Shown here: in pieces, positions 3,869 to 42,610 of the stretch | Layout: every line of letters starts with the position of its first letter | How positions within the stretch are numbered: the stretch's first letter is position 1 | Assembly (NCBI RefSeq): GCF_003018235.1 | Contig: NZ_CP027437.1 | Source of the DNA: Escherichia coli | GTDB taxonomy: Bacteria; Pseudomonadota; Gammaproteobacteria; Enterobacterales; Enterobacteriaceae | DNA length: 64,000 bases | Reading direction: 5' to 3' (one strand) | Notes under the pieces: model-generated | Told to the model about the DNA's origin: nothing | The model's database searches: none | The model's input: only the letters and a program-made list of their open reading frames with translations | Translations under genes and position numbers: made by a program

Positions 3869-5551
3869 ATGAAGTCTGCATTAAAGAAAAGTGTCGTAAG
3901 TACCTCGATATCTTTGATACTGGCATCTGGTATGGCTGCATTTGCTGCTCATGCGGCAGATGATGTAAAGCTGAAAGCAACCAAAACAAACGTTGCTTTC
4001 TCAGACTTTACGCCGACTGAATACAGTACCAAGGGAAAGCCAAATATTATCGTACTGACTATGGATGATCTTGGTTATGGACAACTTCCTTTTGATAAGG
4101 GATCTTTTGACCCAAAAACAATGGAAAATCGTGAAGTTGTCGATACCTACAAAATAGGGATAGATAAAGCCATTGAAGCTGCGCAAAAATCAACGCCGAC
4201 GCTCCTTTCATTAATGGATGAAGGCGTACGTTTTACTAACGGCTATGTGGCGCACGGTGTTTCCGGCCCCTCCCGCGCCGCAATAATGACCGGTCGAGCG
4301 CCCGCCCGCTTTGGTGTCTATTCCAATACCGATGCTCAGGATGGTATTCCGCTAACAGAAACTTTCTTGCCTGAATTATTCCAGAATCATGGTTATTACA
4401 CTGCAGCAGTAGGTAAATGGCACTTGTCAAAAATCAGTAATGTGCCGGTACCGGAAGATAAACAAACGCGTGACTATCATGACAACTTCACCACATTTTC
4501 TGCGGAAGAATGGCAACCTCAAAACCGTGGCTTTGATTACTTTATGGGATTCCACGCTGCAGGAACGGCATATTACAACTCCCCTTCACTGTTCAAAAAC
4601 CGTGAACGCGTCCCCGCAAAAGGTTATATCAGCGATCAGTTAACCGATGAGGCAATTGGCGTTGTTGATCGTGCCAAAACACTTGACCAGCCTTTTATGC
4701 TTTACCTGGCTTATAATGCTCCGCACCTGCCAAATGATAATCCTGCACCGGAGCAATATCAGAAGCAATTTAATACTGGTAGTCAAACAGCAGATAACTA
4801 CTACGCTTCCGTTTATTCTGTTGATCAGGGTGTAAAACGCATTCTCGAACAACTGAAGAAGAACGGACAGTATGACAATACTATTATTCTCTTTACCTCC
4901 GATAATGGTGCGGTTATCGATGGTCCTCTGCCGCTGAACGGGGCGCAAAAAGGCTATAAGAGTCAGACCTATCCTGGCGGTACTCACACCCCAATGTTTA
5001 TGTGGTGGAAAGGAAAACTTCAACCCGGTAATTATGACAAGCTGATTTCCGCAATGGATTTCTACCCGACAGCTCTTGATGCAGCCGATATCAGCATTCC
5101 AAAAGACCTTAAGCTGGATGGCGTTTCCTTGCTGCCCTGGTTGCAAGATAAGAAACAAGGTGAGCCACATAAAAATCTGACCTGGATAACCTCTTATTCT
5201 CACTGGTTTGATGAGGAAAATATTCCCTTCTGGGATAATTACCACAAATTTGTCCGCCATCAGTCAGACGATTACCCGCATAACCCCAACACCGAGGATT
5301 TAAGCCAATTCTCTTATACGGTGAGAAATAACGATTATTCGCTAGTCTATACAGTAGAAAACAATCAGTTAGGTCTCTACAAACTGACGGATCTACAGCA
5401 AAAAGATAACCTTGCCTCCGCGAATCCGCAGGTCGTTAAAGAGATGCAAGGCGTGGTAAGAGAGTTTATCGACAACAGCCAGCCACCGCTTAGCGAGGTA
5501 AATCAGGAGAAGTTTAACAATATCAAGAAAGCACTAAGCGAAGCGAAATAA
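3869..5551 (+). CDS. ydeN: Putative serine-type sulfatase YdeN with signal peptide
   Basis: Start at ATG 3869 (MKSALKK..., AGAGGAA RBS) within ORF 3836..5551; sulfatase active-site signature with Ser in place of Cys (GVSGPSRAAIMTGR). Confidence 0.9.
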   Translation: MKSALKKSVVSTSISLILASGMAAFAAHAADDVKLKATKTNVAFSDFTPTEYSTKGKPNIIVLTMDDLGYGQLPFDKGSFDPKTMENREVVDTYKIGIDKAIEAAQKSTPTLLSLMDEGVRFTNGYVAHGVSGPSRAAIMTGRAPARFGVYSNTDAQDGIPLTETFLPELFQNHGYYTAAVGKWHLSKISNVPVPEDKQTRDYHDNFTTFSAEEWQPQNRGFDYFMGFHAAGTAYYNSPSLFKNRERVPAKGYISDQLTDEAIGVVDRAKTLDQPFMLYLAYNAPHLPNDNPAPEQYQKQFNTGSQTADNYYASVYSVDQGVKRILEQLKKNGQYDNTIILFTSDNGAVIDGPLPLNGAQKGYKSQTYPGGTHTPMFMWWKGKLQPGNYDKLISAMDFYPTALDAADISIPKDLKLDGVSLLPWLQDKKQGEPHKNLTWITSYSHWFDEENIPFWDNYHKFVRHQSDDYPHNPNTEDLSQFSYTVRNNDYSLVYTVENNQLGLYKLTDLQQKDNLASANPQVVKEMQGVVREFIDNSQPPLSEVNQEKFNNIKKALSEAK

Positions 5552-5563
5552 CTAAACCTTCAT

Positions 5564-5589
5564 GCGGCGGATTTTTCCGCCGCCTTATT
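5564..5589 (+). terminator. Hairpin gcggcgg-attttt-ccgccgc between ydeN and ydeM (partial terminator or attenuator)
   Basis: Inverted repeat read directly; sits only ~15 nt before the ydeM start so read-through is likely. Confidence 0.35.
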
Positions 5590-5602
5590 GAGCGAGATAG
5601 CG

Positions 5603-6760
5603 ATGCACGTTACAGCCAAGCCCTCCAGTTTTCAATGTAATCTCAAATGTGATTACTGTTTTTACCTTGAAAAAGAGTCGCAGTTTACTCATGAAAAATG
5701 GATGGATGACAGCACTCTGAAAGAGTTCATCAAACAATATATCGCAGCGTCTGGCAATCAGGTCTATTTTACCTGGCAAGGCGGTGAACCCACTCTGGCT
5801 GGCCTGGATTTTTTCCGTAAAGTTATTCACTATCAACAACGCTATGCCGGCCAAAAACGAATTTTTAATGCATTACAAACGAATGGCATTTTATTGAATA
5901 ATGAATGGTGTGCCTTTCTCAAAGAACATGAGTTTCTGGTTGGTATCTCGATCGATGGCCCCCAGGAGCTACATGACCGCTACAGACGCAGTAATTCAGG
6001 TAACGGTACTTTTGCAAAAGTGATAGCAGCCATCGAGCGTCTGAAATCATATCAAATAGAGTTTAATACGTTAACCGTCATTAATAACATTAATGTCCAT
6101 TACCCTCTTGAGGTTTATCATTTTTTAAAATCTATCGGCAGTAAACATATGCAATTTATCGAATTGCTCGAAACCGGGACGCCGAATATTGATTTCAGTG
6201 GTCATAGTGAGAACACATTCCGTATCATTGATTTTTCTGTGCCTCCTACGGCTTATGGCAAGTTTATGTCGACCATTTTTATGCAATGGGTTAAAAACGA
6301 TGTGGGTGAAATTTTCATCCGTCAGTTTGAAAGCTTTGCCAGCCGTTTTTTGGGGAATGGGCATACCAGTTGTATTTTCCAGGAGTCCTGCAAGGATAAT
6401 CTGGTTGTTGAAAGTAATGGAGACATTTACGAATGCGACCATTTTGTCTATCCACAGTACAAAATTGGAAACATTAATAAATCTGAACTTAAAACGATGA
6501 ACAGTGTACAACTGACAGCGCAAAAAAAACGGATTTCAGCGAAATGTCAGCAATGTGCATATAAACCTATCTGCAATGGCGGTTGCCCTAAGCATCGTAT
6601 TACTAAAGTAAACAATGAGACTGTTTCCTATTTTTGCGAAGGTTATAAAATCCTTTTTTCAACCATGGTACCTTATATGAACGCCATGGTGGAGTTAGCC
6701 AAGAACAGAGTACCGCTTTACCACATCATGGATGTTGCAAGACAAATGGAGAATAATTAA
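5603..6760 (+). CDS. ydeM: Radical-SAM anaerobic sulfatase-maturating enzyme homolog YdeM
   Basis: CxxxCxxC radical-SAM motif (CNLKCDYC) near the N-terminus plus C-terminal Cys clusters; start at ATG 5603 (MHVTAKPSS...). Confidence 0.9.
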
Positions 6761-7050: not shown

Positions 7051-8736
7051 ATGATAACCATTCCCATTACATTTCGTATGTTGATAGCAAAGTATCTCTG
7101 TCTGCTGAAGCCCTTTTGGCTGCGTAAGAATAATAAAACTTCAGTGCTGTTAATCATTATTATCCTCGCCATGATCCTTGGCGTTGTTAAAATTCAGGTC
7201 TGGTTAAACGACTGGAATAATGATTTTTTCAATGCGCTAAGCCAGAAAGAAACCGATAAGCTTTGGCAGCTTGTTCTTTGGTTCCCTGCCCTGCTGGGGA
7301 TCTTTGTATTAATATCCGTAAACAAAACATGGTTAATTAAACTACTGACAATTCGCTGGCGCGAATGGTTAACAGATTACTACCTTAATCGCTGGTTTGC
7401 AGATAAAAACTACTACTTCACGCAGATCTACGGTGAGCATAAAAATACAGATAACCCTGACCAACGTATCGCTGAAGACATTCTCTTACTGATCAGCAAA
7501 ACGCTCAGCCTTTCATTTGGCTTCATCCAGTCACTTAGCATGCTGATCACCTTTACCGTTATTCTTTGGCAAAGCGCGGGTACGCTCTCATTCACTGTTG
7601 GTGGAACTGAATGGAATATCCAGGGGTATATGGTCTATACCGTCGTGCTCATTGTGATCTGTGGAACTTTATTTACCCATAAGGTTGGTAAACGTATTCG
7701 TCCGCTTAATGTGGAAAAACAACGTAGCGAAGCGACATTTCGAACTAATCTTGTGCAGCATAATAAGCAGGCAGAACTGATTGCGCTAAGCAATGCTGAG
7801 TCTTTACAACGCCAGGAGTTGAGCGACAATTTTCATACCATTAAAGAGAACTGGCATCGTTTAATGAATCGTCAGCGCTGGCTTGATTACTGGCAGAATA
7901 TTTATTCGCGCTCGCTTAGCGTTCTTCCCTACTTTCTGTTATTGCCACAGTTTATTAGCGGACAGATCAATCTGGGCGGACTGATGAAATCGCGCCAGGC
8001 ATTTATGCTGGTATCGAACAATTTAAGCTGGTTTATTTATAAATATGACGAACTCGCTGAACTGGCTGCGGTTATCGATCGCTTGTATGAGTTCCATCAA
8101 CTCACCGAACAGCGCCCTACGAATAAGCCAAAAAATTGCCAACATGCGGTTCAAGTGGCTGACGCGAGTATTCGTACTCCTGATAATAAGGTTATATTAG
8201 AGAACCTGAACTTTCATGTTTCGCCAGGCAAATGGCTCTTACTGAAAGGTTACTCTGGTGCGGGAAAAACCACACTGCTTAAAACATTATCCCACTGCTG
8301 GCCGTGGTTTAAAGGTGATATTTCGTCTCCTGCTGACAGTTGGTATGTGTCACAAACACCGTTAATCAAAACCGGCTTACTGAAAGAGATAATTTGTAAA
8401 GCACTTCCCTTGTCCGTAGACGATAAATCGTTGAGCGAAGTACTGCATCAGGTTGGTCTGGGGAAATTGGCTGCGCGTATTCATGACCACGATCGCTGGG
8501 GAGATATTCTTTCCAGCGGCGAAAAACAACGTATCGCCCTGGCACGATTAATTTTACGACGTCCGAAATGGATATTTCTTGACGAAACTACCTCTCATCT
8601 TGAGGAACAAGAGGCTATCCGCTTACTGCGTTTAGTGCGTGAAAAACTACCCACAAGCGGCGTCATTATGGTTACACATCAACCCGGTGTCTGGAACCTG
8701 GCTGATGATATTTGTGACATTAGCGCGGTTTTATAA
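7051..8736 (+). CDS. yddA: ABC transporter YddA, fused permease and ATPase (SbmA/BacA-like)
   Basis: 561-aa ORF; N-terminal membrane domain, Walker A (GYSGAGKTT) and ABC signature (LSSGEKQRIALARL). Confidence 0.9.
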   Translation: MITIPITFRMLIAKYLCLLKPFWLRKNNKTSVLLIIIILAMILGVVKIQVWLNDWNNDFFNALSQKETDKLWQLVLWFPALLGIFVLISVNKTWLIKLLTIRWREWLTDYYLNRWFADKNYYFTQIYGEHKNTDNPDQRIAEDILLLISKTLSLSFGFIQSLSMLITFTVILWQSAGTLSFTVGGTEWNIQGYMVYTVVLIVICGTLFTHKVGKRIRPLNVEKQRSEATFRTNLVQHNKQAELIALSNAESLQRQELSDNFHTIKENWHRLMNRQRWLDYWQNIYSRSLSVLPYFLLLPQFISGQINLGGLMKSRQAFMLVSNNLSWFIYKYDELAELAAVIDRLYEFHQLTEQRPTNKPKNCQHAVQVADASIRTPDNKVILENLNFHVSPGKWLLLKGYSGAGKTTLLKTLSHCWPWFKGDISSPADSWYVSQTPLIKTGLLKEIICKALPLSVDDKSLSEVLHQVGLGKLAARIHDHDRWGDILSSGEKQRIALARLILRRPKWIFLDETTSHLEEQEAIRLLRLVREKLPTSGVIMVTHQPGVWNLADDICDISAVL

Positions 8737-8773
8737 AAACAATAAAAGCCCTGCTGTACGGAGATAAAAATAA

Positions 8774-11146
8774 ATGAAGCGAGTTCTTATTCCTGGCGTC
8801 ATTTTATGTGGCGCTGATGTGGCGCAGGCCGTCGATGACAAAAATATGTACATGCATGTTTTTGAAGAGATGACGGTCTATGCTCCTGTCCCTGTACCCG
8901 TAAACGGCAACACGCATTACACCAGTGAAAGCATCGAGCGTTTACCGACCGGGAATGGCAATATCAGCGATCTGCTGAGAACCAACCCTGCGGTACGCAT
9001 GGATTCAACGCAAAGTACCTCATTGAACCAGGGAGATATTCGCCCTGAGAAAATCTCTATTCACGGTGCGTCGCCCTACCAGAATGCCTATTTGATTGAT
9101 GGTATTAGTGCAACTAATAACCTGAACCCAGCGAATGAGTCCGATGCCAGTAGTGCAACCAATATTAGCGGGATGTCACAGGGGTATTATCTAGATGTCA
9201 GCTTACTTGACAATGTGACGCTTTATGACAGTTTTGTGCCGGTTGAATTTGGTCGCTTCAATGGCGGGGTAATTGATGCAAAGATCAAACGCTTCAATGC
9301 TGATGATAGCAGCGTGAAACTGGGTTATCGCACTACGCGTTCGGACTGGTTAACATCGCATATCGATGAGAATAACAAGAGCGCATTTAATCAAGGTTCT
9401 TCAGGAAGTACTTATTACTCTCCAGATTTTAAAAAGAACTTTTATACCTTGTCGTTTAATCAGGAACTGGCTGATAACTTCGGCGTTACCGCCGGTTTAT
9501 CGCGCCGCCAGTCTGATATCACCCGCGCGGATTATGTTTCGAATGACGGCATTGTCGCCGGTCGGGCACAGTATAAAAACGTTATCGATACCGCAGTGAG
9601 CAAATTTACCTGGTTTGCCAGCGACCGCTTTACCCACGATTTAACATTAAAATATACCGGCTCCAGTCGTGATTATAATACCAGCACCTTCCCGCAGTCT
9701 GATCGTGAAATGGGTAATAAATCCTACGGTCTGGCATGGGATATGGATACGCAGCTCGCAAGGGCCAAACTACGTACCACCGTTGGTTGGGATCATATTA
9801 GTGATTATACCCGTCACGATCATGACATCTGGTACACCGAACTTTCATGTACATATGGTGATATTACAGGGCGTTGCACCCGTGGCGGATTAGGACACAT
9901 TTCCCAGGCTGTAGATAATTACACCTTCAAAACACGCCTGGACTGGCAAAAATTCACCGTGGGTAATGTTTCGCATCAACCCTACTTCGGCGCGGAATAC
10001 ATCTATTCCGATGCATGGACTGAACGCCATAACCAGTCTGAATCCTATGTGATTAATGCTGCCGGAAAGAAAACTAACCATACCATTTACCATAAAGGTA
10101 AAGGCAGCCTGGGAATTGACAACTATACGCTGTATATGGCGGATCGCATTAGCTGGCGTAATGTGTCATTAATGCCCGGCGTGCGGTATGACTATGACAA
10201 CTATCTGTCAAACCACAATATCTCCCCGCGCTTTATGACGGAATGGGATATTTTTGCTGATCAAACCTCAATGATTACCGCCGGTTATAACCGTTACTAT
10301 GGCGGGAATATTCTTGATATGGGATTACGTGATATCCGCAATAGCTGGACGGAATCGGTATCAGGCAATAAAACCCTGACGCGTTATCAGGATTTGAAAA
10401 CACCTTATAACGATGAACTGGCAATGGGGTTGCAGCAGAAAATCGGTAAGAACGTTATTGCGCGTGCAAACTATGTTTATCGTGAAGCGCATGATCAAAT
10501 CAGTAAAAGCAGTCGTACCGACAGCGCGACTAAAACCACCATTACTGAATATAACAACGACGGCAAAACCAAAACGCATTCGTTCAACCTCAGTTTTGAA
10601 CTGGCCGAACCCCTGCATATCAGCCAGGTAGATATTAACCCGCAAATTGTCTTTAGCTATATCAAGAGCAAGGGCAACTTGTCGTTAAACAATGGTTATG
10701 AGGAAAGCAATACCGGCGATAACCAGGTGGTTTATAACGGTAATCTGGTCTCTTACGATAGCGTTCCAGTGGCAGATTTTAATAACCCATTAAAGATCTC
10801 CTTAAACATGGATTTCACGCATCAACCGAGCGGGTTGGTGTGGGCGAATACGCTGGCCTGGCAAGAAGCGCGTAAAGCTCGCATTATCCTGGGTAAGACG
10901 AATGCGCAATACATCAGCGAATATTCAGATTACAAGCAGTATGTTGACGAAAAACTGGATAGCAGCCTGACCTGGGACACCCGCTTGTCCTGGACGCCAC
11001 AATTTCTGAAACAACAAAACCTGACGATCAGTGCCGATATTCTCAATGTACTGGATAGCAAAACCGCGGTTGATACAACGAATACCGGTGTGGCGACCTA
11101 CGCCAGTGGCCGTACTTTCTGGCTTGATGTCAGCATGAAATTTTAA
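8774..11146 (+). CDS. yddB: TonB-dependent outer-membrane transporter YddB
   Basis: 790-aa ORF, C-terminal aromatic residue (..VSMKF), beta-barrel-like composition; recognised as YddB. Confidence 0.9.
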   Translation: MKRVLIPGVILCGADVAQAVDDKNMYMHVFEEMTVYAPVPVPVNGNTHYTSESIERLPTGNGNISDLLRTNPAVRMDSTQSTSLNQGDIRPEKISIHGASPYQNAYLIDGISATNNLNPANESDASSATNISGMSQGYYLDVSLLDNVTLYDSFVPVEFGRFNGGVIDAKIKRFNADDSSVKLGYRTTRSDWLTSHIDENNKSAFNQGSSGSTYYSPDFKKNFYTLSFNQELADNFGVTAGLSRRQSDITRADYVSNDGIVAGRAQYKNVIDTAVSKFTWFASDRFTHDLTLKYTGSSRDYNTSTFPQSDREMGNKSYGLAWDMDTQLARAKLRTTVGWDHISDYTRHDHDIWYTELSCTYGDITGRCTRGGLGHISQAVDNYTFKTRLDWQKFTVGNVSHQPYFGAEYIYSDAWTERHNQSESYVINAAGKKTNHTIYHKGKGSLGIDNYTLYMADRISWRNVSLMPGVRYDYDNYLSNHNISPRFMTEWDIFADQTSMITAGYNRYYGGNILDMGLRDIRNSWTESVSGNKTLTRYQDLKTPYNDELAMGLQQKIGKNVIARANYVYREAHDQISKSSRTDSATKTTITEYNNDGKTKTHSFNLSFELAEPLHISQVDINPQIVFSYIKSKGNLSLNNGYEESNTGDNQVVYNGNLVSYDSVPVADFNNPLKISLNMDFTHQPSGLVWANTLAWQEARKARIILGKTNAQYISEYSDYKQYVDEKLDSSLTWDTRLSWTPQFLKQQNLTISADILNVLDSKTAVDTTNTGVATYASGRTFWLDVSMKF

Positions 11147-33576: not shown

Positions 33577-33721
33577 GAGGCCTTTGCTGCGACTGCCATG
33601 TTCGGGTCGCAGCATCGCACACTCTCCAACATGAAATGGCTAAATGGATTATTGTTGCGTAGGAAGGAACAATAATGATAGTGTTCCTGGTGAAGGAACG
33701 CTACTGAGAGTAAAGACACTA

Positions 33722-34006
33722 ATGAAAATGGCCAATCATCCCCGCCCGGGGGACATTATTCAGGAATCACTGGACGAACTTAATGTCAGCCTGCGCGAGT
33801 TTGCCAGAGCAATGGAAATTGCGCCCTCAACGGCAAGCCGATTGCTGACCGGAAAAGCAGCTTTGACACCAGAAATGGCGATTAAACTTTCCGTGGTGAT
33901 CGGCAGTTCGCCGCAAATGTGGCTGAATCTGCAAAACGCCTGGAGTCTGGCAGAGGCAGAAAAAACGGTGGATGTGTCGCGATTACGCCGTCTGGTTACG
34001 CAATAA
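33722..34006 (+). CDS. yddM: HigA/VapI-family HTH protein YddM (putative solitary antitoxin, 94 aa)
   Basis: HTH segment ([22 protein letters not shown]); start chosen at ATG 33722 (MKMANHP...); the upstream in-frame extension from 33644 looks non-coding. Confidence 0.8.
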
Positions 34007-35599: not shown

Positions 35600-38500
35600 T
35601 TACGCCTTCTCAATGTTGACTAAGAACGCTTTATATTCCGGCGTTTGCGAGTTTGCATCACCGACATTCGGCGTCAGAGTGTTAGCGATATAACCTTTAC
35701 GCGCGACACCCTCAAAGCCCCAGTGGATTGGAATACCCACCGTTTCAACCTGCTGACCGTTTACATTCAGCGGCTTCAGACGGCGCGTTACCACAGCCAC
35801 CGCGCGGATAAAGCCACGCTTGCTGGATACGGTGACACGGTCGCCATTGGCGATGCCTTTCGCCGCCGCCAGCGTTTCGCTGATTTCCACAAACTGTTCC
35901 GGCTGAGCAATGGCGTTGAGCAATGCATGCTTAGTCCAGGTGTGGAAGTGCTCGGTCAGACGATAGGTCGTACCCACATACGGGAACTGCTCTTTTTTAC
36001 CCATCCGCAGCGCGTCTTGTTCATACAGACGAACGACCGGGTTAGACACCACGTTCGGATGCAGCGGGTTAGTGCCCAGCGGCGTTTCAATTGGCTCGTA
36101 GTGTTCCGGGAACGGACCTTCCGCCATTTTGTTGATGGCAAACAGGCGTCCCATCCCTTCCGGCTGCATGATAAACGGTCCGGTTGGCGTACCTGGCGCG
36201 GCATTGCCGAAGTCCGGAATATCGTTACCCGTCCACTTGCTGCCGTTCCACTGGATCAGCATCCGTTTCGGATCCCACGGTTTACCGTTGATATCCGCCG
36301 AAGCACGGTTGTACAGCACGCGACGGTTGAGCGGCCACGCCCAGGCCCATCCCAGCGTATTCCCCAGACCGGATGGGTCGGAGTTATCGCGGTTAGCCAT
36401 CTGGTTGCCCTGCTCTGTCCAGCTACCGGTGTAGATCCAGCAAGACGATGCGGTTGTACCGTCATCACGCAGATGCGCAAAGCTACTCAGCAACTGACCT
36501 TTCTTCGCAATCAGCACGCCATTGGCATCATAGAGATCTTCCAGCGCGTAGCCGTTGTTCTCTTTAGCTACTTCGTCAGATTGCGGTTCGTGCGGCTGCT
36601 TGTAGTTCCAGCTCATCTTCATCAGCGGTTCTACGCCTTTACCACCTTCGGCCTGGTACAACTCGCGCAGATGATGGTAGATACCCGCCAGAATTTCGCC
36701 GTCGTTACGCGCTTCGCCCGGCGCGTCCTGACCTTTCCAGTGCCACTGCAACCAGCGACCGGAGTTAGCGATAGAACCATCTTCTTCAGCAAAGCAGGTC
36801 GAAGGCAGACGGAATACTTCAGTCTGAATAGACGCCGGATCGACATCGTTCGACTCGCCGTGGTTCTGCCAGAAGGTTGAGGTTTCAGTCACCAGCGGAT
36901 CGATAACCACCATGTACTTCAGTTTGCTCAGGCAGCTCACCACTTTGTTTTTGTCCGGGAAGGACGCAACCGGGTTAAAGCCCTGGCAGAAATAACCGGT
37001 GACTTTGCCTTCGTCCATCATGTTGAAATACTTGATGACGTCGTAGGTCTGGTCCCACTTCGGCAGCCAGTCGTAGCCCCAGTTGTTCTCTTTTTGCGCG
37101 GCATCGCCGTAGAAAGATTTCATAAGGCTAACGAAGAACTTCGGATAGTTGCTCCAGTAGTTCACCTGATCAGCCAGCGTCGCTTTCGGCGTGTTCGCTT
37201 CCAGATACGACTGCAAATCAACCTGTTTTTCTGACGGCAGCGTCAGATAACCCGGCAGGCTGGTAGAGAGCAGGCCTAAGTCGGTCAGACCCTGAATGTT
37301 GGAGTGACCACGCAATGCGTTCACGCCGCCACCGGCCATACCCATGTTACCGAGCAGTAACTGGATCATCGCCATAGTGCGGATGTTCTGCGCACCCACG
37401 GTGTGCTGCGTCCAGCCCAGCGCGTACAGGAAGGTGGTGGTGCGATCCGGCGCGCTGGTGGAGGCCAGCACTTCACACACTTTCAGGAAGTCGGCTTTTG
37501 GCGTACCGCAGATGTTTTCTACTACATCCGGCGTGTAGCGGGAAACGTGCTCTTTCAGCAGGTTCCACACACAGCGCGGATGAGTCAGTGTTTCATCGCG
37601 TTTCGCATAGCCGTTTTCATCGAACTGATAGTTCCAGGACGATTTATCGTACTGGCGTTTTTCAGCGTCGTAGCCGCTGAACAGACCGTCTTCGAAAGCA
37701 AAATCATCACGCACCAGCAGGCTGGCATTGGTGTAATGCTTAACGTATTCGGCATTGATTTTGTTGTTTTCGATCAGGTAGCGCAAAACGCCAGACAGGA
37801 ACGTAATGTCCGTACCGGAACGAATAGGTGCGTAAATATCCGCTACAGAAGCGGTACGCGTAAAACGGGGATCGACAACGATCAAGGTTGCATCGTTGTT
37901 GTTTTTCGCTTCCATCGCCCAGCGGAAACCGACGGGATGCGCTTCAGCAGCGTTACCGCCCATCACCATCACGACGTTAGCGTTTTTGATATCCACCCAG
38001 TGGTTGGTCATCGCACCGCGACCAAATGTTGGAGCAAGACTTGCTACCGTTGGTCCGTGTCAGACGCGCGCCTGGTTGTCTACCGCCAGCATCCCGAGGG
38101 AGCGGGCAAATTTCTGGGTCAGCATCCCGGTTTCGTTGCTGGCACCGGAGGCACACAGCATACCGGTAGAAAGCCAACGGTTTACCGTTACGCCCTGCTC
38201 GTTCTTTTCAATAAAGTTAGCGTCACGGTCAGCTTTCATCAGCTTCGCTATACGGGAGAATGCTTCTTCCCAGCTAATGCGCTGCCATTTGTCAGAACCT
38301 GGCGCACGATATTCCGGGTAGCGCAGACGGTTTTCGCTGTTGACGTAATCCAGCAAACCGGCCCCTTTCGGGCACAGCGCACCACGGCTTACCGGATGAT
38401 CCGGGTCACCTTCAATGTGATAAATCGCTTCTCTGGCGTTTTTCGCGCCATCACCCAGGCTATACATCAATAGCCCGCAACCTACGGAACAGTATGTGCA

Positions 38501-38647
38501 GGTGTTACGGATCTCTTTAGCGCGTAATAATTTGTAGTTTCGCGCCTGAGCCAGTGCTTGCTTCGGGGCAAAGCCCAATGCCGCTACTGTTGTTCCAGCC
38601 ATACCGCCCGCGCAGATTTTAAAAAATTGTCTGCGACTGACGTCCAT
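35600..38647 (-). CDS. fdnG: Formate dehydrogenase-N alpha subunit, selenocysteine-containing (in-frame TGA at 38060..38062)
   Basis: ORFs 38060..38647 and 35600..38011 are one frame interrupted only by TGA, giving 1015 codons with Sec at codon 196; Tat signal RRQFFK. Confidence 0.93.
38020..38059 (-). promoter_or_regulatory. Putative SECIS stem-loop immediately 3' of the fdnG UGA codon
   Basis: mRNA segment ...GGUAGCAAGUCUUGCUCC... can fold into a hairpin with a GUCUU-type apical loop, similar in shape to the fdhF SECIS. Confidence 0.5.
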
Positions 38648-38711
38648 TGCTTTCCTCTTTTTTCAGGGGTATTACTGCGCGAGGAAACTAACAGTAAAAT
38701 TCTGAATCTTT

Positions 38712-38725
38712 TTGCGCGAAATCAA
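38712..38725 (-). promoter_or_regulatory. Candidate FNR site (TTGAT-N4-CGCAA on the fdnG sense strand) in the fdnG promoter
   Basis: Half-site match to TTGAT-N4-ATCAA about 70 bp upstream of the fdnG ATG. Confidence 0.35.
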
Positions 38726-38772
38726 AAAGAACACGTGTTTGCCACAAAATAATCCGCCTGCGCAAATTGACC

Positions 38773-38788
38773 TACCTCAATAGCGGTA
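38773..38788 (-). promoter_or_regulatory. Candidate NarL 7-2-7 heptamer pair (TACCGCT-at-TGAGGTA on the fdnG sense strand)
   Basis: Inverted heptamers resembling TACYYMT-N2-AKRRGTA, about 60 bp upstream of the FNR-like site. Confidence 0.35.
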
Positions 38789-38878
38789 GAAAAACGCACC
38801 ACTGCCTGACAGGCCAGTTAAAAAAATGCTATAAAATTCAGCTTAATTTTTAACGGCAAGAGAGACAAAACAGCGAGC

Positions 38879-39760
38879 ATGACACGACAAAAAGCAACGC
38901 TCATAGGGCTAATAGCGATCGTCCTGTGGAGCACGATGGTAGGATTGATTCGCGGTGTCAGCGAGGGGCTAGGCCCGGTCGGCGGCGCAGCTGCTATCTA
39001 TTCATTAAGCGGGCTGCTGTTAATCTTCACAGTTGGATTTCCGCGTATTCGGCAAATCCCGAAAGGCTATTTACTCGCCGGGAGTCTGTTATTCGTCAGC
39101 TATGAAATCTGTCTGGCGCTTTCCTTAGGGTATGCGGCGACCCGTCATCAGGCGATTGAAGTGGGTATGGTGAACTATCTGTGGCCCAGCCTGACAATTC
39201 TCTTTGCCATTCTGTTTAATGGTCAGAAAACCAACTGGCTGATTGTACCAGGATTATTATTAGCCCTCGTCGGCGTCTGCTGGGTGTTAGGCGGTGACAA
39301 TGGGTTACATTATGATGAAATCATCAATAATATCACCACCAGCCCATTGAGTTATTTCCTGGCGTTCATTGGTGCGTTTATCTGGGCAGCCTACTGCACA
39401 GTAACGAATAAATACGCACGCGGATTTAATGGAATTACCGTTTTTGTCCTGCTAACGGGAGCAAGTCTGTGGGTTTACTATTTTCTCACGCCACAACCAG
39501 AAATGGCATTTAGCACGCCAGTCATGATTAAACTCATCTCTGCGGCATTTACCTTAGGATTTGCTTATGCTGCATGGAACGTCGGTATATTACATGGCAA
39601 CGTCACCATTATGGCGGTAGGTTCGTATTTTACGCCCGTTCTTTCCTCAGCGCTTGCAGCCGTGCTGCTCAGCGCCCCGCTGTCGTTCTCGTTCTGGCAA
39701 GGCGCGCTAATGGTCTGCGGCGGTTCCCTGCTCTGCTGGCTGGCGACACGTCGTGGCTAA
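38879..39760 (+). CDS. yddG: Aromatic amino acid exporter YddG (DMT/EamA family)
   Basis: 293-aa polytopic membrane protein recognised as YddG. Confidence 0.92.
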   Translation: MTRQKATLIGLIAIVLWSTMVGLIRGVSEGLGPVGGAAAIYSLSGLLLIFTVGFPRIRQIPKGYLLAGSLLFVSYEICLALSLGYAATRHQAIEVGMVNYLWPSLTILFAILFNGQKTNWLIVPGLLLALVGVCWVLGGDNGLHYDEIINNITTSPLSYFLAFIGAFIWAAYCTVTNKYARGFNGITVFVLLTGASLWVYYFLTPQPEMAFSTPVMIKLISAAFTLGFAYAAWNVGILHGNVTIMAVGSYFTPVLSSALAAVLLSAPLSFSFWQGALMVCGGSLLCWLATRRG

Positions 39761-40018
39761 AATAATTGTCGGGTCTACGGCCCGGCAGTTAATCAGATAA
39801 ATTCCGACAATATAAAAAAATAAATTTCAAATACCAGTAGTTCACCTTATATTTCATTTCGACTTCGATCACATATCGATAAATAATATTATTTCATCTA
39901 TTTTTCTCATTGTTTTTAATCACCATTCTATTTTAAAAACAGTATGTCATTTATAAATGACGCCGTTTAAAATTCGTTTAGAAAATACGTTTAACGATAA
40001 TTAAAAGGATTCTGTTAA

Positions 40019-41119
40019 ATGAAATTAAAAATAGTTGCGGTGGTTGTAACTGGTTTGTTAGCTGCGAACGTAGCACACGCTGCCGAAGTCTATAACAAGG
40101 ATGGTAATAAACTCGACCTTTATGGCAAGGTTACCGCTCTACGTTATTTTACTGATGATAAGCGTGACGATGGTGATAAAACTTATGCCCGTCTCGGCTT
40201 TAAAGGAGAAACGCAAATCAATGATCAAATGATTGGTTTTGGTCACTGGGAATATGATTTTAAAGGCTATAACGATGAAGCCAACGGCTCGCGCGGTAAC
40301 AAGACCCGTCTGGCCTATGCAGGTTTAAAAATTAGTGAATTTGGCTCTCTGGACTATGGTCGTAACTACGGTGTCGGCTATGACATTGGTTCATGGACCG
40401 ATATGTTGCCAGAATTTGGTGGCGATACCTGGAGTCAGAAAGATGTCTTCATGACATACCGTACTACCGGTGTGGCAACCTATCGCAACTACGATTTCTT
40501 CGGCTTAATTGAAGGTCTGAACTTTGCCGCGCAATATCAAGGCAAAAATGAACGCACTGACAATGGTCATCTTTATGGTGCTGACTACACGCGTGCCAAT
40601 GGTGACGGTTTCGGTATCTCCTCAACTTATGTTTATGATGGCTTTGGTATCGGTGCGGTGTATACCAAATCCGATCGGACAAATGCGCAGGAAAGAGCCG
40701 CTGCTAATCCTCTCAATGCCTCCGGTAAGAATGCAGAACTGTGGGCTACAGGTATAAAATATGATGCCAACAACATCTACTTTGCAGCTAATTACGCTGA
40801 AACATTAAACATGACCACCTATGGCGATGGTTATATCTCTAACAAAGCACAAAGTTTTGAAGTAGTGGCACAATATCAATTCGACTTCGGCTTGCGCCCA
40901 TCACTCGCTTACCTGAAATCGAAAGGCAGAGATCTGGGCCGCTACGGCGACCAGGACATGATTGAGTATATCGACGTTGGTGCGACGTATTTCTTCAACA
41001 AAAATATGTCGACCTATGTTGATTATAAAATCAACCTGATTGATGAAAGCGACTTTACCCGTGCCGTAGATATTCGCACCGATAACATCGTCGCAACGGG
41101 CATTACCTATCAGTTCTAA
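40019..41119 (+). CDS. yddL: General porin of the OmpC/OmpF/PhoE family, apparently intact (YddL-like)
   Basis: Signal peptide ending AHA-AEV, Gly/Tyr-rich beta-strand composition, C-terminal ..ITYQF; occupies the position of the K-12 yddL pseudogene. Confidence 0.85.
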
Positions 41120-41132
41120 CATCCTCTCCTGA

Positions 41133-41158
41133 CCAGCCCTTCTCTGGGCTGGTTTTTG
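41133..41158 (+). terminator. Rho-independent terminator after the porin gene (ccagccc-ttctct-gggctgg + TTTTT)
   Basis: Stem-loop plus T-tract read directly. Confidence 0.65.
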
Positions 41159-41288
41159 ATTTAAGTGCTGCTGTATGACTCCTTAAGTAAAAATGAGCAA
41201 TTTTTGATATTTCTGGTCATTCACCTCAATTAATATTATTCCATACCCTCCGGGGACATCTTACTATAATATTTATTGATGAGTGATT

Positions 41289-42548
41289 ATGACCAATATT
41301 AATACAGCTTGTGTAAAAAATAATGCCAGTTATCAATTAAATAACGCATTACCTAACAAAGAAACCATCTCCAGCAATTTTTGTGAACGACTGGCACAAT
41401 GGGGTAATAAGTCGCTTAATAATGGTGAAGAAAGAGCTATTGCCGTAGAGCGAATTAAAGAAGCTTACAATTCGAACATGGCATCTCTTGATTTGTCATA
41501 TCTTGATTTGAGTGAGTTACCGCCTATCCCCTCGACAGTTAACACGTTAAATCTGGAAAAAAATTGTCTCACTTGTCTTGACTTTACTGACAATGCCAGC
41601 CTCGTCAATATCAACCTCAGCTTTAATAAAATTAAAACGATAACCTTTCCAAATGAATCAAAACTGGAAAATATTTATATTGATCACAACAATCTGGAAA
41701 ATTTGGATTTAAAAAATCAGCATTCATTGGTTAACCTGGAAGCGCAAAATAACAACCTGACAAAAATTAATATTTCTGATAGTTATAAACTGAAATTTCT
41801 TAATCTTGATTATAACAAGCTAGCATCGCTGGATCTCTCCCGGCAAGAATCTCTGATTGAGTTAAGTGCCCATCACAATATGATCACTGACCTTATATTA
41901 CACAATCATCCCAGGATGAAAAAAATCACTTTAAACGACAACCATATTGCACATTTAAACGCGAAAACCACTACAAAACTGGAATATTTAAACTTAAGCA
42001 ATAACAATTTATTGCCAACAGATGACATTGATCAATTAATATCATCAAAACATCTTTGGCATGTATTAGTTAACGGCATCAACAATGATCCACTTGCCCA
42101 AATGCAGTACTGGACTGCAGTAAGAAATATAATTGATGACACTAATGAAGTGACCATTGAATTATCTTATAATCTGGCAATCACAAATATCGATACCAGC
42201 GATGAACATCTTGTAGAAGTAAGCGAGAATTCCGAAGGAAATCATATAAAAGACAATGACTCAATGTCTATTCGTTATAGATCAAAATATTATTCTAGAG
42301 AGTACGCTTTAATAGAAGAAGAAACAATATTTTCTGACGCAGAACTAAAAGCCATTCTGCCTATGCATCGCATGTACGGGGTTGGTGACTATAAGTCAAA
42401 TTCCTCTTCTCTACCCTCACACTCGGGGCTAAAGGACCCAACGGGCACACCCGTCTGTTATTATATTCATAATGAGGATAAACCTTCCTTAGGTTATGGT
42501 TCAACACCCAATAATTGGTTAAACCAATCCTTTTCTACAGAGTTATAA
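41289..42548 (+). CDS. Leucine-rich-repeat protein (YddK-like; IpaH/SspH-type N-terminal LRR domain, no recognisable NEL ligase domain)
   Basis: Tandem 20-22-aa LxxLxLxxNxL repeats; N-terminal W..K..GEER.AV.RIKE segment followed by LDLS.L..LPP; about 70 percent A+T; start at 41289 or alternative GTG at 41283. Confidence 0.75.
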   Translation: MTNINTACVKNNASYQLNNALPNKETISSNFCERLAQWGNKSLNNGEERAIAVERIKEAYNSNMASLDLSYLDLSELPPIPSTVNTLNLEKNCLTCLDFTDNASLVNINLSFNKIKTITFPNESKLENIYIDHNNLENLDLKNQHSLVNLEAQNNNLTKINISDSYKLKFLNLDYNKLASLDLSRQESLIELSAHHNMITDLILHNHPRMKKITLNDNHIAHLNAKTTTKLEYLNLSNNNLLPTDDIDQLISSKHLWHVLVNGINNDPLAQMQYWTAVRNIIDDTNEVTIELSYNLAITNIDTSDEHLVEVSENSEGNHIKDNDSMSIRYRSKYYSREYALIEEETIFSDAELKAILPMHRMYGVGDYKSNSSSLPSHSGLKDPTGTPVCYYIHNEDKPSLGYGSTPNNWLNQSFSTEL

Positions 42549-42610
42549 AACACATCCTGATTTATCAAGGATAATAAATCATTAAAATAAAGCATTACTA
42601 CGGAGCAGTT

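Follow-up and report, generated by a model that had tools for sequence, protein, structure and literature searches.

An intact porin gene beside yddG in Escherichia coli, probably the counterpart of Salmonella ompD

Introduction

In a 64,000-nucleotide stretch of Escherichia coli DNA (NCBI RefSeq assembly GCF_003018235.1, contig NZ_CP027437.1), referred to below as the window, the gene for the exporter YddG is followed by a complete gene for a porin. We conclude with good confidence that this gene is the intact E. coli positional orthologue of Salmonella ompD, that it encodes a general-diffusion porin and that its locus is ancestral, having been lost in most lineages.

The gene itself has been seen before. 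According to Okeke et al. (2011; PMC3079680), it corresponds to z2239 of strain EDL933 and orf1601 of enteroaggregative E. coli (EAEC) 042, in the region known as O-island 62, and the likeness of the K-12 gene yddL to the 5' end of z2239 was already noted there; the word 'porin' is absent from their text. With the protein in RefSeq, the locus described in 2011 and yddL recognised as a z2239 remnant, the finding as such was thus already known. What is new is the assignment as an OmpD counterpart, which is absent from the literature searched, and the present analysis adds the precise breakpoints of the deletions behind yddL and yddK, the frequencies of the different locus states and evidence that the gene is under purifying selection. 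A specialist will find none of these additions surprising; the labelling of the gene as 'ompC' and the additional porin carried by O157 and group D strains are of practical relevance.

An OmpD counterpart at the yddG–narU locus

The porin gene and the sequences that belong to it are arranged as follows.

38879..39760, + strand: yddG, aromatic amino acid exporter, left neighbour of the porin gene (NCBIfam NF008676 YddG, 472 bits)
39761..40018, + strand: upstream/5' regulatory region, 27% GC; last ~190 bp homologous to the regions 5' of Salmonella and C. koseri ompD
40005..40009, + strand: Shine-Dalgarno sequence AAGGA, 9 nt 5' of the porin ATG (read from the sequence)
40019..41119, + strand: porin open reading frame (ORF), ATG start, 366 codons, no internal stop
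40019..40081, + strand: signal peptide, 21 codons, cleaved between AHA and AEV (alignment with OmpC, OmpF, PhoE, OmpD and NmpC)
40082..41119, + strand: mature porin of 345 amino acids, a 16-strand beta-barrel, plus stop codon (alignment, AlphaFold, Foldseek)
41131..41159, + strand: intrinsic terminator, a 9-bp G+C-rich hairpin at 41131-41154 (6 G-C pairs) followed by TTTTT

Protein homologues, clade membership, gene order and upstream homology together identify the porin as the positional orthologue of OmpD, ancestral at the yddG–narU locus. Its amino acid identity is 78% to a porin of Citrobacter koseri, 72-75% to porins of other Citrobacter, Enterobacter and Lelliottia, 72-75% to Salmonella OmpD and 66-68% to NmpC and Lc, falling to 59-63% with OmpC, OmpN, OmpF and PhoE of K-12 (62% for OmpC). 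A neighbour-joining phylogeny with 100 bootstraps unites the window porin, the OmpD-like porins, NmpC/Lc and a further Escherichia porin, P0104 (described below), in a clade that is split from OmpC, OmpF, OmpN and PhoE in 100 of 100 replicates, although the method gives no branching order for the window group, OmpD, NmpC and P0104.

Gene order points the same way. In E. coli, Salmonella and C. koseri alike, yddG is the left neighbour of the porin gene. The window order is fdnG, yddG, porin, two leucine-rich repeat (LRR) genes and narU, and that of Salmonella and C. koseri is fdnG, yddG, ompD, a GFA-family gene, an MFS transporter gene, a TetR regulator gene and narU. Both Salmonella OmpD (P0034 in our set) and the 78%-identical C. 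koseri porin are encoded directly 3' of yddG; fdnGHI lies on the left side of this block and narU-narZ on its right. A cryptic-clade Escherichia has the same arrangement as the window, and in E. albertii a porin gene is present at the yddG site but split by the insertion sequence (IS) IS1. Upstream of the gene, an alignment of the three species reveals the conserved blocks GATCACA, AAATAAT, TTAAAAA.AGT.TG.CATT, CGTTTA and AAGGATT, and the AAGGA Shine-Dalgarno sequence is likewise conserved in the Salmonella and C. koseri counterparts.

The signal peptide, too, resembles that of Salmonella OmpD (MKLKLVAVAVTSLLAAGVVNA) and differs from that of NmpC and Lc, which have one of their own (MKKLTVAISAVAASVLMAMSAQA). 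NmpC (from the DLP12 prophage) and Lc (from phage PA-2) are prophage-borne porins that belong to the OmpD/NmpC clade, with 68% amino acid identity to the window porin, but they form a 100%-supported subgroup of their own that leaves the window porin outside. We considered a prophage origin of this NmpC/Lc-like kind for the window porin and rejected it, since no phage gene is adjacent (the flanks are yddG and the LRR genes) and the signal peptide is OmpD-type.

The likeness to Salmonella OmpD, which takes in the slot 3' of yddG, the signal peptide, the ~190 bp of upstream homology and the fully supported clade, has its limits. The two differ in their surface loops, including a 6-residue loop insertion in common with C. 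koseri, and the E. coli gene has LRR genes as its right neighbours and is polymorphic in its presence within the species. Further differences, in small-RNA control and codon usage, are taken up below.

Integrity of the gene and its product

A preliminary description of this DNA, made from the sequence alone, had proposed an intact 366-residue porin of the OmpC/OmpF family with a signal peptide, a C-terminal Phe and a clean terminator, and each of these features is borne out. It overlooked the positional orthology with OmpD, the earlier account of the locus as O-island 62 and how common the gene is. With no internal stop, the ORF matches the whole Pfam profile PF00267 Porin_1 (residues 27-366 against positions 1-337 of 337, E 2e-134) at 448.6 bits, the cutoff being 23.7. 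Residues 22-366 align without a break to the crystal-structure sequences of OmpK36, OmpC, OmpF and PhoE, so the frameshift-compensated segments that might have betrayed a damaged gene are absent. The junction AHA/AEVYNKDG coincides in the alignment with the cleavage site of OmpC, OmpF and PhoE, and the protein ends in YQF. With a centroid energy of -17.7 kcal/mol (z = -4.25), the terminator hairpin folds better than every one of 200 shuffled sequences.

The pore appears to be complete too. Residues K37, R58, R97, R148, D128, E132 and D136 (precursor numbering) occupy invariant columns in an alignment of the classical porins with OmpD and NmpC, and in a wider alignment of 30 sequences all remain invariant except D136, which is at least 90% conserved. 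The constriction loop L3, with its PEFGG sequence, is conserved in the form TD..PEFGGD. In an AlphaFold model (pLDDT 75.6, pTM 0.73) the protein forms 16 strands, with a helix at 119-127 in L3, and Foldseek aligns this model to OmpC (2J1N), OmpK36 and OmpF with TM scores of 0.85-0.92. In Pfam family, fold, L3 motif, pore-lining charges and C-terminal Phe the protein therefore resembles OmpC, OmpF, PhoE and OmpN; in its lower identity to them, its clade and its locus it stands apart.

The yddL and yddK remnants in K-12

In MG1655 the gene order is fdnG, yddG, yddL (b1472, 96 amino acids), yddK (318 amino acids), yddJ (a pseudogene) and narU. The preliminary description had taken the K-12 counterpart to be a truncated pseudogene, and rightly so: far from being full length, yddL consists of the first 92 porin codons, which run into a deletion junction, and encodes 96 amino acids in all. 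These 92 codons are collinear with the window porin at 98-99% nucleotide identity, and yddL has its position and upstream region in common with the window gene. The two LRR genes of the window, and the two segments that K-12 and strain E24377A lack (breakpoints from blastn), are these.

41283..42548, + strand: LRR protein gene 1, 421 amino acids from GTG, 35% GC, intact; right neighbour of the porin gene and counterpart of z2240/z2241 of O-island 62
42611..43864, + strand: LRR protein gene 2, 417 amino acids, 34% GC, intact
40297..41834: deletion 1, absent from K-12 and E24377A, 9-bp overlap at the breakpoints; creates yddL
42167..42808: deletion 2, absent from K-12 and E24377A, 11-bp overlap at the breakpoints; joins LRR gene 1 with LRR gene 2, giving yddK

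Both are microhomology deletions. Deletion 1 takes out the 3' three-quarters of the porin gene together with the intergenic DNA and a 5' portion of LRR gene 1, and leaves a junction that reads GGCTCGCGCGG followed by CAAGAATCTCTGA (..CGCGG|CAAGAATCTCTGA in the junction alignment). Beyond it the porin frame enters LRR gene 1 DNA and stops after four foreign codons, so that ~4 of the 16 strands are left in YddL. YddK is a chimera in which residues 1-96 correspond to residues 200-295 of LRR protein 1 (96% identity) and residues 93-317 to residues 67-291 of LRR protein 2 (91%). E24377A has the same two junctions with an unbroken 443-residue fusion LRR protein, which indicates that the deletions are one old event and that the split into yddK and yddJ in K-12 came later.

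The genes yddL, yddK and yddJ are thus the debris of one porin gene and two LRR genes, an origin to be kept in mind when functions are guessed for the 96-residue YddL (PMC9976479). Since yddK is a deletion chimera, the statement in PMC3079680 that K-12 is 'disrupted by insertion of yddK' stands corrected.

Distribution among E. coli

Some part of the porin query is matched in 5,387 of 5,426 complete E. coli genomes, and 1,100 of the 5,426 (20%) cover the query at 80% or more; the 3' part of the porin alone returns the same 1,100. The shares of the locus states were estimated from an evenly spaced sample of the ranked genome matches.

full length: ~20%
K-12-type truncation: ~55%
no more than the first 77 bp beyond yddG present (whole locus lost): ~22%
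rare intermediates: remainder

In strain MS 200-1, which is of the 77-bp type, narU directly follows yddG. Eleven of the 12 full-length loci inspected have an intact 366-codon ORF, the other (EE72d) having a stop at codon 78, and strain THO-008 has an independent 3' deletion of the porin gene. The porin DNA of the window is identical to that of strain 118UI, but the window as a whole is only 98.6% identical to that strain, which is therefore not its source. The O157 allele has 98.1% nucleotide identity to the window porin gene, with three amino acid differences. The exact protein (WP_000768393.1) occurs on at least 1,000 contigs. A 90% protein cluster that contains the porin lists LepA/EF4 (603 amino acids, Roseburia) as its representative and among its members; this is evidently an indexing artefact, and we made no use of the cluster size. 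As for the lineages concerned, the literature places the retaining genomes in phylogroups D, E and F, and PMC3079680 reports the intact locus in O157:H7, O55:H7 and the ECOR group D strains 042, UMN026, IAI39 and SMS-3-5.

Selection on the retained gene

Intact alleles that differ from one another at 16-38 nucleotide positions have only 1-3 amino acid changes, giving dN/dS values of 0.007-0.044, equally low as those of the neighbouring core gene yddG (0.011-0.030). Where it is kept, then, the porin is under purifying selection. Its dS (0.08-0.16) is similar to that of yddG (0.05-0.28), which fits vertical inheritance together with the flanking DNA. Indirect evidence of this kind, drawn from the comparison of alleles, favours a function for the porin, and it lends indirect support to the suggestion in the preliminary description that this strain may express an additional general porin, a suggestion tempered by the weak codon bias given below. 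We infer that the porin would be expressed and would trimerise to form an open channel with its own conductance and selectivity.

Putative regulatory sites

Small-RNA pairing was predicted at two positions within the coding sequence.

40036..40045, + strand: predicted RybB seed-pairing site at +18..+27 (RNAduplex), weakened by G-U pairing; a site is predicted at the same position in Salmonella ompD
40085..40096, + strand: position of the MicC pairing site, codons 23-26; broken by two synonymous changes, GAGGUAUAUAAC to GAAGUCUAUAAC

The RybB duplex computed with RNAduplex has an energy of -13.7 kcal/mol in the window porin versus -18.3 kcal/mol in Salmonella ompD. At codons 23-26, a site that is reportedly the target of MicC in Salmonella ompD (Pfeiffer et al. 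2009), a 12-bp duplex of -15.5 kcal/mol is predicted in Salmonella and in C. koseri. This MicC duplex is gone in the window, in O157, in K-12 and in all the E. coli alleles examined except that of strain AST85, for which a partial and weaker duplex (-10.0 kcal/mol) is predicted. Loss of the site is a regulatory feature and has no bearing on membership of OmpD by descent. Restoration of GAGGTATATAAC is predicted to bring back control of the porin by MicC.

Upstream of the gene little stands out. A scan of the AT-rich upstream region for promoters found ten consensus-like sites, where 4.7 are expected, none of them compelling. A CRP-like site, TTCGACTTCGATCACA, at 39858-39873 has two mismatches to the consensus and a right half that is conserved across species, but it was discarded as not above chance: with 23 CRP-like matches in the window against 28 expected, it amounts to no evidence. 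An Rfam scan of 38500-44500 gave no match at E<=1, and the list of constitutive promoters for K-12 holds only an internal promoter in yddLKJ.

Alternative explanations

RefSeq names the gene 'ompC / porin OmpC', which would make it a second copy, or paralogue, of OmpC. The name arises because the protein just passes the subfamily model NF007841 'porin OmpC' (495 bits, cutoff 484), and the best PDB sequence matches, OmpK36 and OmpC, seem to agree with it. That ranking, however, comes about because no closer structure has been solved, the best matches being only ~60% identical, and at 62% identity to K-12 OmpC the porin falls apart from OmpC and OmpN in every bootstrap replicate; the locus differs as well, true ompC lying beside micF and rcsD. 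We regard a copy of OmpC as highly improbable. Another account comes from PMC3079680, which presents O-island 62 as recently acquired and argues this from its low GC content (33-36%), so that the porin would be an accessory import on a horizontal island and not an ancestral gene. In keeping with this, the porin gene (44% GC) lies below yddG (50%), it adjoins two LRR genes of 34-35% GC that Salmonella and C. koseri lack, and another Escherichia genome has a different porin allele at the site. Yet 44% counts as within the range of the K-12 porin genes (45-51%; phoE 45%, ompN 47%, ompF 48%), so the argument from low GC holds for the LRR genes only and it is to them that the 'foreign island' signal belongs. 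Porins of the same clade come next after yddG in C. koseri and Salmonella as well as in cryptic-clade Escherichia and E. albertii, the window gene and ompD have homologous upstream regions, allelic dS tracks that of yddG, and K-12 yddK proved to be a product of deletion with no insertion involved. Recent import of the porin thus seems quite unlikely, and we prefer descent of an OmpD orthologue at its ancestral site.

Several observations nevertheless count against the view that the gene is a vertically inherited and functional OmpD counterpart. An exclusive pairing of the window porin with OmpD is found in only 13 of 100 bootstraps, so that the case for strict vertical orthology is made by synteny and upstream homology and not by the phylogeny. 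The genome GCA_019841415.1, with its differing allele at the same site, shows that allele replacement at this locus does happen. The literature searched holds no expression or channel data for the porin ('OmpD' in the E. coli papers found means NmpC or is ambiguous). Its codon adaptation index (CAI) of 0.38 is similar to those of phoE (0.36) and ompN (0.47) and far below those of ompF (0.66), ompC (0.82), the orthologue in C. koseri (0.72) and ompD of Salmonella (0.68); with the weights used, after Sharp and Li (1987), only the ranking is trustworthy. The 27% GC of the upstream region would fit silencing by H-NS, and the repeated, independent loss of the gene argues that it is dispensable in most niches.

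At the extreme, these observations would make the intact ORF a silent relic, a pseudogene-in-waiting that is not expressed or expressed to no purpose. The locus has indeed been lost or broken often, whether by K-12-type truncation, by excision, by the nonsense mutation in EE72d, by the 3' deletion in THO-008 or by IS1 in E. albertii, and low CAI, an AT-rich upstream region and the lack of a clear consensus promoter would suit a gene that is no longer used. Against this, the dN/dS values between alleles are incompatible with neutral drift, each of the 11 intact alleles in the sample is exactly 366 codons long, and the Shine-Dalgarno sequence, the terminator and every pore residue are preserved. 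A silent relic is on balance unlikely; the low CAI suggests instead that in E. coli this would be a minor or conditional porin, unlike OmpD in Salmonella, where it is a major one.

A proposed role and history

How the porin might work can be sketched by analogy with its classical relatives. It would be exported via Sec and cleaved after AHA, then inserted by the beta-barrel assembly machinery (BAM) through its C-terminal YQF, and it would form a trimer of 16-strand beta-barrels in which loop L3 (PEFGGD) narrows the pore opposite a basic cluster, K16/R37/R74/R124 in the mature numbering of OmpC. Small hydrophilic solutes, including drugs of the size of beta-lactams, would be expected to diffuse passively through it.

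As to its history, the A and B1 lineages, K-12 included, probably lost the porin through a single pair of microhomology deletions common to them. In other lineages the locus was excised completely, and single strains have nonsense, deletion or IS lesions. Tentatively, and with the balance of probability somewhat against it as a whole, we suggest that the carriers (~20% of genomes, including O157:H7 and, from the literature, extraintestinal strains of phylogroups D and F) use this ancestral OmpD orthologue as a conditional third or fourth general porin under regulation of its own, the MicC site having been lost and that for RybB kept. If so, the porin would be a lineage-specific route of entry for antibiotics when OmpC and OmpF are lost and a lineage-specific phage or colicin receptor and surface antigen, and the repeated losses, through five or more kinds of lesion, would be the work of selection by these agents and not of drift alone.

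Relevance

The permeability of the outer membrane is set by its porin repertoire, and in E. coli resistance through porin loss is scored on ompC and ompF alone. An extra porin could partly compensate for the loss of OmpC and OmpF, and about one genome in five has such a porin, apparently functional, under the label 'ompC', which could confuse both pangenome studies and resistance screens. PGAP gives the symbol 'ompC' to yddG-linked homologues of the porin (for example at 8259-9359 of our locus L002), and as carriers are expected to hold the true ompC too, they would have two 'ompC' genes, a likely source of error in analyses of porin loss and of the pangenome.

Recognition of the gene as a counterpart of OmpD also means that findings on Salmonella OmpD become testable in O157 and extraintestinal E. 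coli. These include, from the literature, its role with YddG in the efflux of methyl viologen, its control by small RNAs and its status as a target of protective antibodies.

Neighbouring genes and other features of the window

The two LRR genes take the place of the GFA-family, MFS-transporter and TetR-family genes found 3' of ompD in Salmonella and C. koseri. Their products are only ~29% identical to each other, and that of LRR gene 2 is 90.6% identical to an O157 protein that RefSeq names as the type III secretion system (T3SS) effector EspR1. LRR gene 1 is frameshifted, IS-disrupted or partly deleted in many strains (118UI, CE10, O157, E50).

The differing porin at the site, P0104, comes from the Escherichia genome GCA_019841415.1, whose fdnG-yddG region is 96.8% identical to that of the window. 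This OmpD-clade porin of 371 amino acids (5001-6116 of our locus L026) has 66% amino acid identity to the window porin; in place of LRR genes, a GFA-family gene and a cluster for a ring-hydroxylating dioxygenase come next. In full length it occurs in none of the 5,426 complete E. coli genomes. Porin genes annotated as 'porin OmpC' are also present on E. coli plasmids, and 32 of 164 matched places lie on plasmids; the best match, at 75270-76317 of NZ_CP190037.1 (a 154-kb E. coli plasmid, H101), has ~73% nucleotide identity to the P0104 allele.

Elsewhere in the window, fdnG (35600-38647, - strand) appears as two ORFs of 803 and 195 amino acids parted by an in-frame stop, in keeping with the UGA that is known to encode selenocysteine in formate dehydrogenase-N; in related genomes RefSeq has a single coding sequence of 1015 amino acids. 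The adhP-fdnI interval (33613-34001) is not collinear with that of 118UI, whose annotation has a RelE/ParE-HigA (yddM) toxin-antitoxin pair there. Between yddE and nhoA lies an IS3-family element (53328-54778) that is 99.2% identical to an IS1397-like element of 118UI, found there at the same site but reversed with respect to the flanking DNA. Towards the end of the window, a DcrB-family (PF08786) protein of 150 amino acids (63330-63782, - strand) precedes a 1554-residue protein with PAAR, DUF6531 and RHS-repeat regions (58647-63311, - strand) that looks like an Rhs toxin of a type VI secretion system (T6SS). The match to 118UI ends at ~56.6 kb, and at the RHS region that strain has a different cluster, of VgrG, PAAR and M35-peptidase genes.

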